The notes below the pieces were generated by a model. The model worked only from the letters and a program-made list of their open reading frames with translations, was not told the origin of the DNA and searched no databases. A DNA stretch of 62,501 bases from Alphaproteobacteria bacterium (GTDB lineage: Bacteria > Pseudomonadota > Alphaproteobacteria > Rickettsiales > UBA8987): NCBI GenBank assembly GCA_030429725.1, contig JAUIEX010000003.1, positions 1-62,501 on the forward strand. Direction: 5' to 3'. The translations under genes were made by a program, and so were the position numbers. Positions 5,057 through 62,501 of this stretch are shown here, piece after piece. Position 1 is the stretch's first letter. Each line of letters opens with the position of its first letter.

Positions 5057-6217
5057 TCACGGGGTGTGTGACGGGGAATTATCGGGCATCAAATTCTGTT
5101 GCCTCATCGCTTCATTCACCACTTGCTTCATCACCAGCTTGGGCGGCACATGCACCATGCTATGTTCCTTGCTTTGCGGCTGGTAAATGACGATGGTGGG
5201 GTTGGCGTTTCCCATGCCCGCTTCCCGTTGGGCTTCCGCCAGCTGCGCTTGCTCGGCAATGGCGCGGAACAATGTTTTGGTCAGCTCCGGGTTGCCTTGT
5301 AAGTTCTCAGAAAGACTTCGGGAAGGGTCATAAGGAATGAAATCCTGCGCCTCTTCGGCGGCGTTATAGGCCAGAATGGCCCTGGCCTGTTCCAGCTTCG
5401 TGTTGACCACAATTTCCGGATAGAAAGGGAATTCTTCTAATATTTGAGGGTTTTCTTTCAGCGCCGCAATCAGCTTTTTATAGGCTGCCATGGCACGTTC
5501 CTGCACTTCAGGGTCAAGCGGATCCACCGTGGCGTAAGGCTTGCCTTCCTCAAAATTTACCTGCTCTGAAACCAGATGATGCAGCGGGTGATCCGGCCGT
5601 GCACGTAACATGGCGACCACGCCAGCAAGTTTTTTTGCTTCATCTGGGTGATCCTTAAAATAGCTTTGTCCCATGGCAGCAATCGCTTCTGCTGTCTCTT
5701 CATAACTCTCCAATAATTTTATGCTAGCTTCCCACTGCGCCTTATTGGGCACGCCGTCTTCTTTTTGATAGTAAGTGCTCCATGCATCATAGGGCAGAGA
5801 AAGTATGGGAGTTGCCCCTTCAAATAAAATTCCCGTTTGACTGGCATAAGGATAAACCGGCAAAGCCAGTCCTTCTACAACGGTTGAGCTGGCAATGCCA
5901 ACTAACCCATGTTCCTTATCACCAGTTTGTGCACGCGTTCTAAACGCATCCTTAGCCTGAGAGTTTTCAGGATCATCAAAATAACCCTTATCGGTATAGG
6001 TTGCCTCTTCCTTCCCGGCCATGACACCAAGGAAACTGGCAATCTCCCCTTTTCGGGCCTGGATTGCAGCTGCCTCCGGGCTGTTGCCGGCGCCGGCAAA
6101 ACTCTCCCACATATGCAGAAAGAGCGGCTTTTCTTCCGCGTTGGCATAGCCGGCCTGAATGCTTGCAAAGGTAGCATTAAATGCCGCTAATTGATCCTCA
6201 CCATATAAATCTGTCAT
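5057..6217 (-). CDS. Orphan hypothetical protein, 386 aa
   Basis: Long AT-richer ORF with no recognised family; preceded by the shared CtrA-type promoter. Confidence 0.75.
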   Translation of the reverse strand: MTDLYGEDQLAAFNATFASIQAGYANAEEKPLFLHMWESFAGAGNSPEAAAIQARKGEIASFLGVMAGKEEATYTDKGYFDDPENSQAKDAFRTRAQTGDKEHGLVGIASSTVVEGLALPVYPYASQTGILFEGATPILSLPYDAWSTYYQKEDGVPNKAQWEASIKLLESYEETAEAIAAMGQSYFKDHPDEAKKLAGVVAMLRARPDHPLHHLVSEQVNFEEGKPYATVDPLDPEVQERAMAAYKKLIAALKENPQILEEFPFYPEIVVNTKLEQARAILAYNAAEEAQDFIPYDPSRSLSENLQGNPELTKTLFRAIAEQAQLAEAQREAGMGNANPTIVIYQPQSKEHSMVHVPPKLVMKQVVNEAMRQQNLMPDNSPSHTP

Positions 6218-6279: not shown

Positions 6280-6479
6280 TCCTCCAGCGCTCTGGCTTCA
6301 CTTTCCAACATAATGGGAATCCCTTCCCGAATTGGAAAGGCCAGCTTGGCTTTCTCGCTGATCAGTTCCTGCGTTTTTTTGTCGTAGCGCAGCGTGCCAC
6401 GGCTGACCGGGCAGACCAGCATATTTAGCAGCGCCCTTGAAAGCTCCGGCGCGGTATCATTTTGCTTTTTTGTCATCAC
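6276..6479 (-). CDS. Trm112/YcaR family protein
   Basis: [14 protein letters not shown]...[18 protein letters not shown]. Confidence 0.92.
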
Positions 6480-7342: not shown

Positions 7343-9064
7343 ATGCTGCGCCTCATGCGCATTCAGATTGAACAGATCAGCCCGGAAGTGGGCGCGATTG
7401 ATAAAAACCTTGCGCTGCTGCGTGGCTATCTGACGGCGGATGCGGATATTATTTTATTTCCGGAGCTGTGCATCAGCGGCTATCCGCCGGAGGATCTGGT
7501 GTTGCTGCCGGCTTTTCAGGAAGCCTGCCGTGATGCCGTGTTATCACTTGCCGCGGAAACCAAACAAGGCGGCGCGGCACTGATGGTGGGTGCGCCATGG
7601 GCGGAAGACGGCAAGATTTATAACGCCACCTTCCTGCTGGCCGATGGCGGCATTGCCCACCGGCAATATAAGCATGCTTTGCCGAATTACGGCGTGTTTG
7701 ATGAGGCGCGTCTGTTCAGCGCCGGCGCCCTCCCAAAACCATTCCAATTCCGAAATGAAACCTTTGGGCTGTTGATTTGTGAAGATTTATGGGATCAAAC
7801 CGTGCCGGTTTCACTTGCGGGTTCGTCACTTGTTTTTTCCATCAATGCTTCGCCTTATGAGGTGAATAAAACGGCGCTGCGCCGTCAGCGCGCCCGCCAT
7901 GCGGCGGCACAAACCGGCGCCCCGCTGATTTACGTGAACCAGCTTTGCGGGCAGGATGATCTGGTGTTTGACGGTGGCTCCTTCGTGCTGAATGCGGCGG
8001 GAGAGGAAATTCTGACCCTGCCGCATTTTGAAGTGGGGAGTGCGGTGTTGGCATTTTCTAATAGTTCCCTGAATGTTGTTCCTGAACATCCCATGGAACG
8101 GGGCTCAGGGCTGCGCTCGCCTGCTGGCGCGCAGGATAGGAATGATTCCGCCCCCCCACCTGAAACTGCAATTGCAGTTTCAGACTCCCTCACAAATGGG
8201 GAGTTATCTTACATCTATCAGGCGATGATGCTGGCGCTTTCCGCCTATGTGGAGAAGAATCATTTTCCCGGCGTGTTGATTGGCCTCTCCGGCGGGATTG
8301 ATTCCGCCCTTTCCGCTGCCATTGCCGTGGACGCGCTTGGGGCGGAACGTGTGCAGACGGTGATGCTGCCTTCGGAATTTACGTCACAGGAAAGTCTGGA
8401 AGATGCCGCCAGGTGCGCCGAAATGCTGGGCTGCCTCTATGATATCATACCTATTGATAGCGCACGCGCCGCTGTCACACAGGAACTTTTGCCTTTTTTT
8501 GAGGGCACAAAGCCCGGGCTGGCGGAAGAAAATATCCAGTCCCGCCTGCGCGGCTTGCTGCTGATGGCGCTATCCAACAAATATGGTAAAATGGTGCTTT
8601 CCACGGGCAATAAGTCCGAGATGGCAGTGGGTTACGCCACCTTATACGGCGATATGTGCGGCGGTTATAACGTTCTGAAAGATGTCTATAAATCCACTGT
8701 TTTTGAACTGGCGCGCTGGCGCAACGCGCATATTCCGCCGGCAGCGAAAGGTGGAAACGCCATGGCGATGCCGGAGCGGGTGATCACCAAGCCGCCTTCG
8801 GCGGAATTGCGCCATGACCAGAAAGATGAGGATTCCCTGCCGCCTTATCCGGTGCTGGATGAAATTCTGCGTCACTTCATCGAAGGGCAAATGCGCCCGC
8901 GTGACATCATTGCCAAAGGCTTTGATGAGGCTGCCGTCCGCCATATTGTGCAGCTGGTTCACCGCGCGGAATATAAGCGCCGGCAATCCCCGCCGGGGGT
9001 CAAAATCGGCACGCGCCCCTTCAGCCGCGACCGCCGCTTTCCCATCACGAACGGGTTTTTCTGA
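7343..9064 (+). CDS. nadE: Glutamine-dependent NAD+ synthetase carrying an in-frame palindromic insert
   Basis: Nitrilase domain (FPELCISGYPPEDL, LICEDLW) plus synthetase domain (GLSGGIDS, ENIQSRLRG, TGNKSE, PPSAEL). Confidence 0.95.
   Translation: MLRLMRIQIEQISPEVGAIDKNLALLRGYLTADADIILFPELCISGYPPEDLVLLPAFQEACRDAVLSLAAETKQGGAALMVGAPWAEDGKIYNATFLLADGGIAHRQYKHALPNYGVFDEARLFSAGALPKPFQFRNETFGLLICEDLWDQTVPVSLAGSSLVFSINASPYEVNKTALRRQRARHAAAQTGAPLIYVNQLCGQDDLVFDGGSFVLNAAGEEILTLPHFEVGSAVLAFSNSSLNVVPEHPMERGSGLRSPAGAQDRNDSAPPPETAIAVSDSLTNGELSYIYQAMMLALSAYVEKNHFPGVLIGLSGGIDSALSAAIAVDALGAERVQTVMLPSEFTSQESLEDAARCAEMLGCLYDIIPIDSARAAVTQELLPFFEGTKPGLAEENIQSRLRGLLLMALSNKYGKMVLSTGNKSEMAVGYATLYGDMCGGYNVLKDVYKSTVFELARWRNAHIPPAAKGGNAMAMPERVITKPPSAELRHDQKDEDSLPPYPVLDEILRHFIEGQMRPRDIIAKGFDEAAVRHIVQLVHRAEYKRRQSPPGVKIGTRPFSRDRRFPITNGFF
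8064..8208 (+). repeat. Palindromic element family A, in-frame inside nadE
   Basis: Aligns along its length with the reverse complement of ubiD 57833-57986; hairpins CTGAAACTGCA/TGCAGTTTCAG and ACTCCC/GGGAGT. Confidence 0.85.
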
Positions 9065-9122: not shown

Positions 9123-10664
9123 ATGGCTAGGCTAAAAACCAATGATGCTGCGGCAAAACAAAGCATGAAAACTGCGTTTGAAAATGCCATTTCTTTGCTT
9201 ACAACTGGTTCTGATTCTAACCTAACAGAGATATGGAACGTCATTGATCGGGCTTATAACCAGCCTACCCGCCATTTTCACCATAAAAAACATCGTGACA
9301 TGATGATGATGCCACTGGAACAGGAATATCAGAAGGCCAAAGCCGACGGTGAGACTTTGGTTGTGGGACAGATTAAACAACTACGCTCACAATCGAAGAT
9401 GAATGAAATAACTATGGATAGCCTGCTGGCCATTAATGGCGCGGTGCATGATGTGGTGTATACCCTGCCGGATAAAGGGCTGGGCGTGGCCAAGAACATG
9501 CTGAAAAACATCGTTCCGGCACCTAATGGCCAGTTCGTGTTGGCAAAAAACTTTAGCCCAACCACCGAACAGCGCATTATTCTGGATATTTTTCAACATG
9601 CCGGGCTGTATAATAAGAGTGAATCACTGAGCAATGAACTTATGAGCGCACTGGCCACCCTGCCAGCACTGGTGCAGGAGGGTGGTTTAAGCCACTCAAC
9701 CCTTGCACAATTAGCCGTGATGGTGGCCGGAACCGTGCCGTTTAAAGATCAAAGTCACATGCCAAATTTAAAGGCAGCGCTGAAAAAAGTAGCTGAAAAA
9801 AATAATCTTAATCTGGATGAAGATGCCATTGCCGACACTGTTCGCCTTGCCACCTATGCCGCCAATCGTGATGTGAGTGCACTGATTGCCACCAGGCCCG
9901 CGCAAAGCATTTATGGCAGCATGGAATTGCTGGCGGAACGTGTGCCGGAAGCAATAGATGGTAATATCAGCCCTGTAAAATTCATGCAGGAAATGCACCG
10001 CTCAGTTAGTGGCTTGCGGGAATATGTTGTACCAAATCTTGCCAATGTTGCACATGTTGATGGTGACGGCTTTCCAGAACCTGCGTTGAAGCAGAAGCTG
10101 GATGAACACGCTGACGCCAACATGAAAGTCAATCTTGGTTTTCATCACCTGCATGTGTTAAGCGACGCATTGGTGGCGGCTATCAGCCTGAAGGCAGACA
10201 TAAACGATTCACGCTACACGCTGATGGCAAACATCGCCGCGCCCGAAAAAACCAATAACGATGATCTACTCTTTGACATCATGCGGGATGTGGCAACCCG
10301 TCCGGAACTTGGCCAGTTGGTTCAAAAAGGCACGGAGCAAAATCCTTATGGCAGCTTTGCTTTTGCCGCTCACATGTTGAACGCGCTGCCGGATCAGCCC
10401 GCTTTAGAAGCACTGGTGGAAAATTCTGCCATCCAGAACTTCCTCAATAATCCTAATCAAACCAATCCCTACGCGGTGCTGAATTTTTTAGCCGAAAAAA
10501 TAGGTGCGGAGAAATTCAACGATCTGGTTGAAACCCTAGACGCTGCCAATGCTAAGCATGCATCCGATATCCGTAAGCAAAAAGAACCCACCGGAACCGG
10601 GCAGAAAGCAGCAGTCACTTCTTCACCTTCCACAAAGCCAAACAAAGGCACGGGAAAAACTTAG
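9123..10664 (+). CDS. Hypothetical protein with HD-phosphohydrolase-like motifs
   Basis: RHFHHKKH and AVHDVVY, then NELMSAL, GTVPFK, ANRDV. Confidence 0.6.
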   Translation: MARLKTNDAAAKQSMKTAFENAISLLTTGSDSNLTEIWNVIDRAYNQPTRHFHHKKHRDMMMMPLEQEYQKAKADGETLVVGQIKQLRSQSKMNEITMDSLLAINGAVHDVVYTLPDKGLGVAKNMLKNIVPAPNGQFVLAKNFSPTTEQRIILDIFQHAGLYNKSESLSNELMSALATLPALVQEGGLSHSTLAQLAVMVAGTVPFKDQSHMPNLKAALKKVAEKNNLNLDEDAIADTVRLATYAANRDVSALIATRPAQSIYGSMELLAERVPEAIDGNISPVKFMQEMHRSVSGLREYVVPNLANVAHVDGDGFPEPALKQKLDEHADANMKVNLGFHHLHVLSDALVAAISLKADINDSRYTLMANIAAPEKTNNDDLLFDIMRDVATRPELGQLVQKGTEQNPYGSFAFAAHMLNALPDQPALEALVENSAIQNFLNNPNQTNPYAVLNFLAEKIGAEKFNDLVETLDAANAKHASDIRKQKEPTGTGQKAAVTSSPSTKPNKGTGKT

Positions 10665-42452: not shown

Positions 42453-42570
42453 GCCACTATTCTGGGTGGGAAATGGTCAGATTGCAAATAGTTAAGTTAG
42501 GTTCTGTTGAGGAAACGCCGCTCTATGAGAAATCCAACAGGATTTCTCGGGAACACGCAACAAAGAACCC

Positions 42571-55055: not shown

Positions 55056-55205
55056 AGGAAATGGCTGATAGCAACAGTTTGGAAGTAAGTCCGGCAATCC
55101 TCTCTCCTTCTCTCTCTCAAGCCTGGCTTACTTCCTTCCCCATTTTGAATTGTTCCCGGGAAATCCTTCCGGAGTTGCCATAAACAACCACGGGTAAAGG
55201 CGTGG

Positions 55206-55258
55206 CGCTCTGCCCTACGCACCGTATAGAGCGGGCTCAGGGCTGCATCGGCCTCCTG
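55206..55258 (+). repeat. Partial intergenic copy of palindromic element family A
   Basis: GGGCTCAGGGCTG at 55233-55245 followed by catcggcctcctg, preceded by a GCTCT/AGAGC-closed hairpin. Confidence 0.55.
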
Positions 55259-55283
55259 AAAAATGAAGGAAATCACAGTCTTG

Positions 55284-55322: not shown

Positions 55323-56789
55323 ATGACAACCCAGGAAAACTCATCACAGATCACCATCACCGTGGAGCAGGCGGCTTCTTTCTTCAAGCAGCAACTGCTT
55401 GATATTATTGATGATAAAGCGACATTTGATGCGCTGAAAGGAAACCTGAAGGATGCGCTTAGAGAGAGTGACTTGTGGGGCGCCGGCACATTGACTTTTG
55501 TCGGCCAGGCCGAAACAAAGAGACTGCTGGAGAAACAATTTGATGACCCGCAGACAGCGGCGTACATCAAACAGATTCTGTTTAAGGATCAAGATGAAAT
55601 CTCCTTAAACGAACTGCAAACTAATTTTGATGCGTGCTGCCGGGGCGAAGGGCTGGACAATATTAGCGAGGACGCCAAATATGTGATGGCGGCGGCCAAA
55701 GCCGGGCAGAAAACCGTGCCGCATCGCTTTAATTTTCCCCATCCCAGCAATCTGGCAGCATTGGAAGATGCCGGGGTGGCGGTGGTGAAGACGAGGAGCG
55801 TGCTCCCCAAACCACAAGGCTTTCCGGTGACGCGGCAGCCTGATCGTGATGAAACCGGCAAGGAAAGCGATGAAACACATGGGCTGAACTGGCCGGAACC
55901 GCTGGGAGGCAACGAGAAACAGTCGGATGCTCAGGATGCGGATACGCCGCCGACCCCCCAGCCCCAACCCAAGCAAACAACATCACGCGATGAAACAGAT
56001 GCGGAAGTTGAGGAAGATGAGATAGCCGTGACCGACCGCCGTCATTTACGCCGCCAGCTGCGGGAAAGTGCGGAGGAATTTCGCCAAAGCCTACGCCGGA
56101 ATGAGCCGGCCTTTGAAGAAGATTTCGCCGAGTTGGAAGCCGAAATGGACGCTTTTTATGAAGCACTGCGGAACACCCATGCCGAGGGGCATGACGTTTC
56201 CCGCCGCCATCCAACGGCAGAGGATAAAGAACGCCGGCAGGAAATTCGCCAGGAGCGCAGGGATTTTGAGCGGGGCACGGATGAGCATTGGGAGCTAAAC
56301 CGGGAATTTAACCGCACCGGCCACGCGCTGGAAGGGCTGAAAAATTTACGCGATGATCTGATGCTGCAATTGCGGGAAAGCAAGCGGGACTCTGCCGATT
56401 TACGCGGCCCTATCGCGCTGGAGGGATACCTGGATCCGGATCGCCGGGAGCTGCGTCAGGAACGCCGCGAGCTGCGGGAAAATCTGCGGGAAACACGCCA
56501 CGCGCTGCGAGAGGCGCGCCACGCGCTGCGCCATCAGGATATTTATCTGAACGATTCCAATAATCTGGAACCGCTGGAAACCGCCAAAGAAAAATTACAG
56601 GAATTGCAGGAGCTTTACGCCGAAAATGGCCTGCAGCGGCAGGAAAAGCGCCTGCTGAAAGATCTGGGCAAAGACCTTAAACGCATGGGCAAAATGGATG
56701 ATGTGGGCGAAGCGATGCGTGATTTTAACCTGCGCGTTTCCAACCTGGTGGATGCCCGCACGCCGGATAATGGGCGCGACAAGGGCTAG
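55323..56789 (+). CDS. Orphan protein, 488 aa, with Arg/Glu-rich coiled-coil C-terminal half
   Basis: Long ORF; ELRQERRELRENLRETRHALREARHALR; CtrA-type promoter. Confidence 0.75.
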   Translation: MTTQENSSQITITVEQAASFFKQQLLDIIDDKATFDALKGNLKDALRESDLWGAGTLTFVGQAETKRLLEKQFDDPQTAAYIKQILFKDQDEISLNELQTNFDACCRGEGLDNISEDAKYVMAAAKAGQKTVPHRFNFPHPSNLAALEDAGVAVVKTRSVLPKPQGFPVTRQPDRDETGKESDETHGLNWPEPLGGNEKQSDAQDADTPPTPQPQPKQTTSRDETDAEVEEDEIAVTDRRHLRRQLRESAEEFRQSLRRNEPAFEEDFAELEAEMDAFYEALRNTHAEGHDVSRRHPTAEDKERRQEIRQERRDFERGTDEHWELNREFNRTGHALEGLKNLRDDLMLQLRESKRDSADLRGPIALEGYLDPDRRELRQERRELRENLRETRHALREARHALRHQDIYLNDSNNLEPLETAKEKLQELQELYAENGLQRQEKRLLKDLGKDLKRMGKMDDVGEAMRDFNLRVSNLVDARTPDNGRDKG

Positions 56790-56864: not shown

Positions 56865-58838
56865 ATGGGCGCACCGTTTGAATCACTTCGCGATTTTTTG
56901 AAGCATCTGGAAAAGCAGGGCGAGCTGAAACGCATCAGCGAACCGGTTTCGACCTATCTGGAGATGACGGAAATTCATAAGCGCGTGCTGGAAGCCGGCG
57001 GGCCGGCACTGCTGTTTGAAAAGCCTGTAAAACTCCCCCCTGGAGGGGGAGTCGCAGAATCTCACCAACGCGAAGTGTTGAGAGAGGATGCGGTGGGGGG
57101 GCAATCGCGGGATGGAACGCCCCCCCACGACTCAGCCTCTGGCGAGGCTTCGTCTGCTCCCCCTCCGGGGGGGAGCTATGGTCTCTCAAAACCCATCCCC
57201 GTCCTATGCAACCTTTTCGGCACGGTGGAGCGGGTGGCGGCCGCCATTGGCCGCAAGCCGGAAGAGCTGCGTGATGTGGGAAAAATGCTGGCCTTTCTGC
57301 GCCAGCCGGAGCCACCAACGCGCTTTCGGGAAGCTTTAGACCTGCTGCCGCTGGCCAAAACCATGCTGACCATGAAGCCGAAAACGGTGAAAAAAGTACC
57401 GTGTCAGGAGGTGGTGATCACCGGGGATGATGTGGATTTATCCATCCTGCCGATTCAGACCAACTGGCCGGGGGACGCGGCACCGCTGATCACCTGGCCG
57501 TTGGTGGTGACACAGGGGCCAACCAAAAGCAAGGAGGGAAGAGTAAAGAGGGAAGAGGGAAGAGGGAAGAGTGCGGACGCCCCCCCACCTGCATCACAGA
57601 TGCAGACTCCCCCACGGGTGGGGAGTGATCATTCCGAACCCCTTCATTATCCCTTGATGAGGGAGTCAGAGCCGCAACGCGGATCGGGCGGGGGTGTCAG
57701 AGAAGATGATCAAAAATATAATCTAGGCATTTACCGCATGCAGGTGACGGGTAAAAACACCACGCTGATGCGCTGGCTGAAGCATCGTGGCGGGGCGCAG
57801 CATCACAAACGCTGGCAGGAACAAAGTTCAGGGATAACTCCCCCTTCACGGGGGAGTCTGAATTTTGATAAAAATTCAGGTGGGGGTCAGATTGCAGAGA
57901 ATGATAAAACGGGTGGAGGCCAGCAGGCCGACCCAGCCCTGAGCCCCGTCTCATTGAAAAATCAGGAAGATTTTTCAGGAGACAGCTTAAAGATGCCCGT
58001 GGCCGCTGTCATCGGGGCGGATCCGGGCACAACATTAGCGGCGGTGACGCCCGTGCCCGACACGCTTTCGGAATATGAATTTGCGGGCTTGCTGCGCGGG
58101 AAACGCGTGGAGCTGGTGGATTGCAAAACCGTGCCGCTGAAAGTGCCCGCCCATGCGGAAATTGTGCTGGAAGGCTATGTGAGTCTGGAGGATTATGGCG
58201 CGGAGGGGCCTTACGGCGACCATACCGGATTTTACAATGAGGTGGAGCAGTTCCCTGTTTTCACCTGCACGGCGATCACCATGCGCAAAGACCCGATCTA
58301 CTTAAGCACCTATACCGGCAAGCCGCCGGATGAGCCTTCCATTCTGGGTGAGGCGCTCAATGAAGTGTTCATTCCGCTGCTACAACAGCAATTTCCGGAG
58401 ATTGTGGATTTTTGGCTGCCGCCGGAAGGGTGCAGCTATCGCGTGGCGGTGGTGAGCATTAAAAAAGCCTATCCCGGCCATGCCAAGCGCGTGATGATGG
58501 GCGTGTGGAGCTATCTGCGACAGTTCATGTATACCAAATTTGTAATTGTGGTGGATCATCACATAAACTGCCGTGACTGGAAGGAGGTGATCTGGGCAAT
58601 TTCCACCCAGATGGACCCGCAGCGCGACACCACCTTCATTGAGCGCACGCCGATTGATTATCTGGATTTTGCCTCCCCGGAATCGGGGCTTGGCAGCAAA
58701 ATGGGGCTGGATGCCACGGCCAAGACCGGCAATGAAACTCACCGCGAATGGGGGCAGCCGATTGAGATGAGTGAGGATGTCATCGCCCGTGTGGACGCGC
58801 TGTGGGAAAAATTAGGGCTGGGTGAGCCGGAGAAATAG
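56865..58838 (+). CDS. ubiD: UbiD family decarboxylase with three in-frame inserts
   Basis: [70 protein letters not shown]; 657 aa versus about 500 aa usual. Confidence 0.95.
57033..57176. repeat. Palindromic element family A, ubiD insert 1
   Basis: CTCCCCC/GGGGGAG terminal hairpins at both ends, GTGGGGGGGC...GCCCCCCCAC inner stem, AGCCTC/GAGGCT hairpin. Confidence 0.88.
57531..57696. repeat. ubiD insert 2: AAGAGGG heptamer array plus two family-A half elements
   Basis: (AAGAGGG) x3.7 at 57546-57571; GCCCCCCCAC-CTGCATC/GATGCAG-ACTCCCC/GGGGAGT at 57579-57626; TCCCT/AGGGA-GTC...GCGGGGGTG at 57650-57696. Confidence 0.82.
57833..57986 (-). repeat. Palindromic element family A, ubiD insert 3 (inverted relative to the nadE copy)
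   Basis: ACTCCCCC/GGGGGAGT, CTGAATTTT/AAAATTCAG and TGAAAAATC/GATTTTTCA hairpins; 16-bp exact match to the nadE copy. Confidence 0.88.
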
Positions 58839-61326: not shown

Positions 61327-62052
61327 ATGGACGATCTTTTGCGTGAATTTCTGGACGAAACCAACGAGGCGCTTGAGTCTCTGGATGCGGATTTTGTCAC
61401 GCTTGAACAGGACCCAAGCAATGCCGATATCGTTGGAAACATCTTTCGCGTGATGCACACCATTAAAGGCACTTGCGGGTTTTTAGGGCTGGAACGGCTG
61501 GAAAAAGTGGCGCACGCCGCCGAGGATGTGATGGATAATATTCGCGACGGTAAGCTCAGCGCTTCACCGGAGGTTATCTCGGTTATTTTTCATGCCACGG
61601 ATTGCATTAAGGACATCGTTGAAAAACTGGGAGAAACCGGCGCAGAACCCACGGGCGACGACAGCGCCTTGATTGCGGAGTTAAACCAGTGCGCCGCCGG
61701 TGGCGCCTCCTCATCCGGCGCGGCAGCAACGGCAAATGCCGCAACTTCCACCGGCTCCGGCATCCCGGATATTGAAGAAGATATCATGACCCGTGGCGGC
61801 ACCACGCCGGATCTGGACATGGACATTGATTTTGAGCCGGTGATGGCAGATTTTGCTGCCGACGAGGCCGCCCTTCCCGCCGCCATTGATCTGGAAAACA
61901 ATCCCGCCATCGATGCGGAGATTAAAGCCGCGGAAGCGGCACTGGCCAAGGCGGAGGCAGAAAGTGAATCTCCACGGGCCAAGGCCCGTGGTATCACGCT
62001 TCGCTACGCTCAGATTTCAAGCTGCGCTTGTCCAGAATCTTCTTTTCCCTGA
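61327..62052 (+). pseudogene. cheA: Chemotaxis kinase CheA N-terminal fragment (HPt domain plus linker), interrupted by IS200
   Basis: MDDLLREFLDETNE, IFRVMHTIKGTCGFLGL; after ...AEAESE the frame runs into the IS end hairpin and stops at 62052. Confidence 0.85.
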
Positions 62053-62501
62053 TGTTCGATATAACGTCTGATAATTGCTTCATCGACACCCACTGTGCTA
62101 ACGAAATAGCCATCGGACCATATGCCATCTGCTCCCCAATATACTTTACGCATGTAGTCAAATCGGCGCTTCATCAATCGACCAGTATGCGATTTAAACG
62201 TACGCACCACATCACTAACACGCATCTTGGGAGGAATTGATAACAACATATGGATATGGTCAATATCATGATTTACCTCAAGTATTTCTACTTCTGGCAG
62301 CATCTCGTGAAAGCTTGTTATCAATTCCCGCAGATAGGCAAATGATCCTTCGTTGAAAATCTTTCGACGGTATTTACTCGTTAAAACAATATGATATTCA
62401 CATCGATAAGCACAGTGGGCTTGTTTCCTTAGGCGCATAAAGAAGATTCTGGACGCACTTCATCCATGGGGCAAGCCCCATGGTTTTTGTGTGCCTATAA
62501 A
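61965..62501 (-). mobile_element. IS200/IS605-family element (tnpA only)
   Basis: Subterminal hairpins CCACGGGCC-aa-GGCCCGTGG (61972-61991) and CCATGGGGC-aa-GCCCCATGG (62464-62483) flank a Y1 transposase; left end may extend past the window. Confidence 0.88.
62010..62438 (-). CDS. tnpA: IS200-family HUH/Y1 transposase
   Basis: YHIVLTSKYRR, DHIHML (HUH), WSDGYFVSTVG, catalytic YIEHQ. Confidence 0.95.
   Translation of the reverse strand: MRLRKQAHCAYRCEYHIVLTSKYRRKIFNEGSFAYLRELITSFHEMLPEVEILEVNHDIDHIHMLLSIPPKMRVSDVVRTFKSHTGRLMKRRFDYMRKVYWGADGIWSDGYFVSTVGVDEAIIRRYIEHQGKEDSGQAQLEI

Follow-up and report, generated by a model that had tools for sequence, protein, structure and literature searches.

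The 62,501-nt stretch of DNA studied here (the window; contig JAUIEX010000003.1 of assembly GCA_030429725.1, an alphaproteobacterium of the order Rickettsiales) carries, within its gene for glutamine-dependent NAD synthetase (nadE), an insert at about positions 8058-8208 that is very probably an in-frame selfish palindromic repeat, i.e., a non-autonomous miniature element. The nadE copy is a hybrid, its left half belonging to one repeat module (A) and its right half to another (B). Units of both modules reside in frame, and in both orientations, in many housekeeping genes of the same genome, and in related genomes inverted B units directly flank an in-frame DUF559 nuclease domain. The genome of the window (G000) is metagenome-assembled, 1.74 Mb in size with 51% G+C, and 98% complete in 74 contigs; the comparison set comprised 40 related genomes.

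The insert came to attention through a first-pass annotation, made from the sequence alone, which reported that the reverse complement of a segment of ubiD (57833-57986) can be aligned from end to end with nadE 8064-8208. The similarity proved to be significant: the local alignment of the two segments scores 50, as against 15 for a same-strand control and a mean of 16.3 (standard deviation 2.3, maximum 30) for 2000 dinucleotide-preserving shuffles, which corresponds to z = 14.5, and a MAFFT alignment of 8040-8230(+) with 57810-58010(-) shows 78% identity per column. The shared blocks quoted in the annotation are all present, including an exact 16-mer (ACGGGGCTCAGGGCTG, located at 8098-8113 in nadE and at 57934-57949, on the opposite strand, in ubiD). 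A two-sequence nhmmer profile built from both copies recovered them at E 1.7e-51 and 3.9e-56, together with 64 further matches in the genome.

Two Families of Palindromic Modules

The 66 genome matches of the two-copy profile split into two blocks, which were defined by iterated nhmmer searches as modules A and B and modelled as R2 and R1, respectively. Module A (60-72 nt) comprises CCC and a variable 9-bp hairpin, then ATGGAGCG, a second hairpin that may be absent, and TCAGGGCTGCGCTCGCCTGCTGGC, whereas module B (46-62 nt) is composed of ACCCCCACC, a variable 7-11-bp hairpin and GACTCCCCC-loop-GGGGGAGTTA, and always ends in GGGGGAGT followed by TA. The genome contains 23 copies of A and 59 of B by nhmmer, and about 32 and 98, respectively, by covariance models. 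The two modules represent separate families, because they are distributed differently among the relatives: B is numerous in G001, G011, G017, G024, G025, G030 and G033, and A is numerous in G027, G031 and G040, the last two of which are without any B. In the A-rich relatives, the units of inverted A pairs are separated by 40-180 nt, which is too little for a gene, and no autonomous form of A was found. A possible similarity of module B to the BoxC/PIT-like repeats of Escherichia coli was rejected, as blastn gave no match in E. coli genomes (a comparison at the sequence level only).

Strong covariation was found in both modules. Among 52 distinct copies of B, aligned by a covariance model (a procedure biased towards the modelled structure), 95.3% of the cells are paired, compared with 63.5% in the best slid control; double-change cells number 109 against a shuffle mean of 31.7, and compensatory pairs in helix 1 amount to 8/9. 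The corresponding values for 21 distinct copies of A, the seed of which was rebuilt from copies with a 4-nt loop only, are 95.2% against 47.5%, 63 against 16.8, and 11/13. Hand-checked seed alignments show the same covariation, independent of model fitting. RNAalifold detected no hairpin in a raw MAFFT alignment of module A, because 4-nt and 5-nt loops shift the register. Wobble pairs are nearly absent (5/741 cells in B and 1/251 in A), and this scarcity of G-U points to a palindrome at the DNA level, suggesting that selection acts on pairing within either DNA strand and not within one transcript.

Several propositions of the first-pass annotation can be judged from these results. The genome-wide copies and covariance models that it called for revealed the covariation it had anticipated. 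Its single element resolves into a hybrid of two independent families, but the interpretation as a mobile structured element stands. That conservation concerns structure rather than peptide is likewise upheld, but the structure would be a DNA palindrome during spread and not an RNA structure maintained in place.

A 152-nt composite of spacer, B and inverted A occurs in two unrelated genes, recG (C68:40060-40211) and spoU (C7:20480-20650), in opposite orientations and with 97% identity; such identity implies recent copying in a genome that lacks DUF559. In ligA, two identical 72-nt stretches 1.6 kb apart (C53:4696-4786 and 6313-6403) each span a 61-nt B unit.

The nadE Copy and Its Host Protein

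The features of the nadE copy and of the other copies in the window are listed in Table 1. The order A, spacer, B is common to the copies in nadE, ubiD, recG and leuS, and the nadE copy is nearest to that in recG (78% over 159 nt). Its left terminal motif, which is shared with the recG, spoU and leuS copies (TGATAGTTCCC, TGATTGTCTCC), appears to form an inverted repeat with the right end, imperfect in nadE with 7/9 matching positions (ATAGTTCCC / ATAACTCCC). Module A was recognised by nhmmer (E 8.8e-15) and by R2 (48.3 bits, E 8e-11), module B by R1 (63.4 bits, E 6e-14), and the peptide reading of the latter is PPPETAIAVSDSLTNGEL. The nadE spacer and the longer one in recG are homologous, with about 40 nt deleted in nadE relative to recG. 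Hairpin 1 of module A has decayed to 6/9 pairs, compared with 9/9 in its closest relative in recG, and hairpin 2 of module B has six Watson-Crick pairs and one G-U pair among eight; that the nadE stems have fewer pairs than their recG relative argues against maintenance of the stems in place.

Table 1. Features of the nadE copy, its host gene and further copies of the modules in the window.
Feature	Positions	Strand	Basis
nadE ORF (open reading frame), 573 amino acids, glutamine-dependent NAD synthetase, host gene	7343-9064	+	ORF list, Pfam, homology
Left terminal motif AATAGTTCC, apparent imperfect inverted repeat of the right end GGGAGTTAT	8058-8066	+	Alignment with other copies
nadE module A, short form without hairpin 2: CCC, hairpin 1, ATGGAACG, then GGGCTCAGGGCTGCGCTCGCCTGCTGGC	8067-8128	+	
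Element spacer with small hairpin GGAATGATTCC at 8139-8149	8129-8151	+	Alignment with recG copy, fold
nadE module B: CCCCCCACC, hairpin 1 (CTGAAACTGCAA/TTGCAGTTTCAG), hairpin 2 (ACTCCCTC/TGGGGAGT), then TA	8152-8206	+	
Intergenic A-like copy upstream of the orphan ORF at 55323	55156-55260	+	Inverted repeat; R2 32.5 bits, E 1.7e-6
ubiD ORF, 657 amino acids, three in-frame inserts	56865-58838	+	ORF; Pfam UbiD match in three stretches
ubiD insert 1: divergent B(-)/B(+) dimer	57030-57178	.	37.5 and 25.7 bits
ubiD insert 2: B(+) 57581-57628, then B(-)-like unit 57644-57695	57581-57695	.	55.8 and 28.2 bits
ubiD module B, antisense to the gene, 18-residue reading	57835-57887	-	R1 72.5 bits
ubiD module A, antisense to the gene, 21-residue reading	57919-57979	-	R2 62 bits

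NadE shares 50-53% identity with alphaproteobacterial NadE proteins of about 548 amino acids, its relatives being Rhodospirillales-like (about 53%). The Pfam boundaries of its two domains (CN_hydrolase at residues 21-230 and NAD_synthase at 292-548) place the copy between glutaminase and synthetase, as the first-pass annotation had stated. From the last strand of the glutaminase to the IYQAM helix NadE has 52 residues, compared with 15-23 in relatives of the same family, and the interdomain linker of a solved NadE structure (5kha) has about 18. The insert replaces most of the native linker: as the spacer is part of the element, about 18 native linker residues have been lost. An AlphaFold model predicts a disordered loop here (residues 246-284, pLDDT 26-31, no secondary structure), flanked by confidently modelled domains. 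In two other genera the same NadE linker contains different, unrelated palindromic inserts (G006, L126; G024, L127) which fold strongly (-72 and -105 kcal/mol), suggesting that the site is permissive or preferred. The window occurs in two metagenome runs (probable DNA metagenomes, kept as contigs); both have the filled allele, with no empty-site variant in either, and in the two runs the nadE site is crossed without differences by a contig of 12,997 bases.

In-Frame Residence in Housekeeping Genes

The copies of A and B in G000 form 68 composite sites, of which 37 fall in ORFs of at least 300 amino acids and 18 are intergenic, the rest being located in short ORFs or at gene edges. The 37 genic sites are concentrated in 19 genes, far fewer than the 36 or so expected if they were placed at random. 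Among the hosts are dnaE, leuS and two other class I tRNA synthetases, cysS, recG, mfd, uvrB, uvrD, ligA, carB, thiC, mnmG, nadE and ubiD, as well as genes for an acyl-CoA dehydrogenase, the E2 subunit of a 2-oxoacid dehydrogenase and a SpoU methylase. All genic copies keep the frame of the host and use stop-free frames only.

Both orientations are open, as had been predicted from the nadE and ubiD copies: in genes, B is sense in 13 cases and antisense in 16, and A is sense in three and antisense in 14. Sense copies of B are in phase 2 in 12/13 cases and read PPPE..SDSP.KGEL, the frame used by the nadE copy, and antisense copies are in phase 2 in 15/16 cases and read NSP..GES..SGGG, the frame used by the ubiD copy. 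The peptides of these two copies are indeed unrelated, as annotated, but recurrent peptide motifs exist across copies, because essentially one reading frame is used per orientation; each module thus has two different peptide motifs.

Association with a DUF559 Nuclease

DUF559, the only coding partner found, has a nuclease fold and is not a known transposase; it has been placed together with Vsr and a homing endonuclease of a group I intron (PDB 3r3p; PMC3424549). In the literature searched we found no publication that links DUF559 to palindromic repeats. A DUF559 match is present in 16/16 relatives with B and in 4/24 without B (Fisher p = 1.5e-7 over the 40 relatives, not corrected for phylogeny). 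The matches sit in open frames of about 1000-1480 amino acids, the hosts being class I tRNA synthetases, CarB and DnaE, and at least 10 of 12 loci have inverted B-like units on either side of DUF559. The first-pass annotation had envisaged a partner gene flanked by the same hairpins, and this is what the relatives have, but none was found in the genome of the window. In public protein collections, DUF559 also occurs inside other long housekeeping proteins, among them tRNA synthetases and RecG.

Two loci show the arrangement most clearly. In carB of G001, a 447-nt insert (149 codons) has the order B(-)-DUF559-B(+), and carB of G000 is uninterrupted at the same point; the ends of this cassette read in the same two peptide frames as the miniatures of G000. 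In dnaE, G025 (L157) has a DUF559 cassette between KAV.LVN and IPL.DPATY, in the order B(+)-DUF559-B(-), which is the reverse of that in carB, and G000 (L091) has nuclease-less B units at the same site; this site is occupied in two families.

We propose that a DNA hairpin, in single-stranded DNA, or a cruciform would be recognised by the mobility machinery, which would account for the conservation of the hairpins. Source copies would differ in their stem sequences, and the stems would decay slowly after insertion, as they may have done in the nadE copy. Genic copies would survive only where a surface loop or linker tolerates them and only in one of the two stop-free frames, which would be those in which the full cassette of the relatives (B, DUF559 nuclease, inverted B) is read through. 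The B-type miniatures might then be derivatives of cassettes, either by internal deletion or as solo ends, and the nadE copy, which has no nuclease and one B unit only, would be such a miniature derivative. That the B-type miniatures are mobilised in trans by the Vsr-like DUF559 nuclease is plausible, although somewhat less likely than not. More doubtful is the broader proposal that B units and DUF559 cassettes constitute an undescribed class of mobile elements, translated through in essential genes and not spliced out, whose Vsr-like nuclease acts on its own hairpin ends and mobilises, in trans, nuclease-less miniatures as well as hybrids like the A+B copy in nadE.

Several points weigh against this explanation. 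No DUF559 match was found in the 98%-complete, 74-contig assembly of G000 despite about 98 copies of B, some of them near-identical, so that the nuclease may be a passenger, may have been lost or may be unassembled. Module A is abundant in G031, G040 and G029, which have neither DUF559 nor a Y1 transposase, and no match of R2 was found near the 12 DUF559 loci. Comparison of filled and empty carB sites revealed no target-site duplication, and no cleavage site could be defined. To these points must be added the shared ancestry of the genomes compared in the Fisher test and the bias of the covariance-model alignments; moreover, that the element is translated as part of NadE we infer from open frames only.

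Alternative Explanations

The most serious competitor is that the modules are REP/REPIN- or PATE-like repeats whose movement depends on a Y1 (HUH) tyrosine transposase (RAYT or the TnpA of IS200/IS605). Y1 transposases act on single-stranded DNA hairpins and leave no target duplication, and our elements form hairpins, have a short conserved end (GTTA) and show no evident target duplication, and their mosaic combinations of units resemble BIMEs; G000 also has two Y1_Tnp genes, of which one (62010-62438) lies in the window. Both genes, however, are flanked by their own, different hairpins, with no A or B unit flanking a Y1 gene, and Y1_Tnp is found in 6/16 relatives with B as against 3/24 without (p = 0.12) and is absent from the A-rich G027, G031 and G040, which makes this explanation improbable. 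We consider it highly improbable that the hairpins are kept for a function in host RNA (translational pausing at domain boundaries, mRNA stabilisation or processing), with their spread being secondary. The nadE and ubiD segments do form very stable folds (-62 and -66 kcal/mol, z -4.5 and -5.7 against shuffles), the nadE copy is placed exactly between two domains, and the two further genera carry other palindromes in the same linker; but the copies occur in both orientations relative to transcription, G-U pairs are nearly absent (6 of about 990 cells), unlike in selected RNAs, the nadE stems are decaying, about one quarter of the sites are intergenic, Rfam gives no match and the distribution among relatives is patchy.

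Removal of the insert before the mature protein is formed, by an intron, an intein or ribosomal bypassing, so that it would not be part of NadE, has a marginally lower probability still. Homing-endonuclease cassettes normally have their home in introns or inteins, and hairpins accompany the bypassed gap in gene 60 of phage T4. In NadE, however, Pfam detected CN_hydrolase and NAD_synthase only and no intein (Hint) domain, and an Rfam scan of the window gave no match, including none to an intron; furthermore, the genic copies keep the frame of the host and are confined to stop-free frames, and the carB cassette comprises a whole number of codons, which removal would not require. A similarity due to chance, low-complexity sequence or misassembly might be suspected in a metagenome-assembled genome which repeats have broken into 74 contigs, but with the z-score and nhmmer E-values (1e-51 or lower) given above, about 130 copies with covariation, intact host ORFs and a contig that spans the site identically in two runs, its probability is negligible. 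An in-frame selfish palindromic repeat is the explanation that we prefer for the nadE insert.

The Y1 gene in the window, 62010-62438(-), is of the IS200/IS605 type and lies between the hairpins CCACGGGCCAAGGCCCGTGG (61972-61991) and CCATGGGGCAAGCCCCATGG (62464-62483). These hairpins recur five to seven times in the genome, mostly within 120 nt of contig ends, so that this is a multi-copy insertion sequence which breaks the assembly. The closed 1.9-Mb genome of G035, from the same order, has 81 Y1_Tnp (IS200-like) copies and no A, B or DUF559.

Comparison with Known Repeats and Mobile Elements

Among published elements the closest analogue is the Rickettsia palindromic elements (RPEs), of which ten families, RPE-1 to RPE-10, have been described (Ogata et al. 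2000, 2002), as summarised in PMC10969869. According to that review, RPEs are palindromes of about 100-150 bp that occur in many copies in the small genome of an alphaproteobacterium, interrupt unrelated housekeeping genes without shifting the frame, are read through, lie at positions tolerated by the fold and contain no transposase of their own (PMC10969869), all of which applies to the elements described here. The resemblance is one of behaviour, and there are clear differences. Each RPE family is described in PMC10969869 as encoding one conserved peptide, with a fixed orientation and frame, whereas A and B use both orientations and have two peptide motifs per module. The elements described here are also modular hybrids of two families, with hypervariable stems that show compensatory changes, and one module flanks DUF559 in relatives, a partner for which PMC10969869 describes no RPE counterpart. 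The elements may thus be viewed as RPE-like in-frame selfish DNA with new variant features, including a candidate nuclease mechanism.

Other systems share some of these properties. REP, BIME and REPIN sequences with their RAYT transposases consist of short hairpin units, found alone, in inverted dimers or in mosaics, with tens to hundreds of copies; REPs, however, are extragenic, whereas more than half of our sites (37/68) lie within long ORFs, and the Y1 genes neither have A or B at their flanks nor co-occur with B. With Vsr-like homing endonuclease genes, the cassettes of the relatives have in common a small nuclease of the PD-(D/E)XK fold and their location in conserved essential genes (dnaE, carB, tRNA synthetases). 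They differ in that they are read through in frame, without intron or intein, that their nuclease is a predicted one, and that they have structured inverted-repeat ends and many nuclease-less miniatures. Like miniature inverted-repeat transposable elements, the miniatures are small, non-autonomous and multi-copy, appear to have imperfect terminal inverted repeats and look like internal deletions of a larger coding element, but no parent with a DDE transposase was found and the carB site shows no target-site duplication.

To our knowledge, palindromic repeats within reading frames have been regarded as peculiar to Rickettsia, without any known way of moving, and the mobility of RPE-like elements has remained unexplained since 2000. 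Here, a small alphaproteobacterial genome outside Rickettsia has such inserts in 19 housekeeping genes. The evidence adds that the selected feature would be the DNA palindrome and not the peptide, and that the modules of two families recombine into hybrids, one of the modules being, in relatives, the end of a cassette that carries a nuclease. Were the link with the nuclease causal, it would provide a testable mechanism for RPE-like in-frame palindromes, and it would account for the unexplained low-complexity loops of annotated enzymes in metagenome-assembled genomes. In practical terms, the inserts lengthen or split domain matches in essential genes and break assemblies.

Further Observations in the Window

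Apart from the copies in Table 1, a borderline A-like match (22.5 bits, E 9e-4) at 42484-42550(-), in AT-richer sequence, may be due to chance. Three long ORFs are without a Pfam match, i.e., 5057-6217(-), 9123-10664(+) and 55323-56789(+); the last, which has the A-like repeat just upstream, encodes a highly charged protein rich in repeats (RRELRE motifs).

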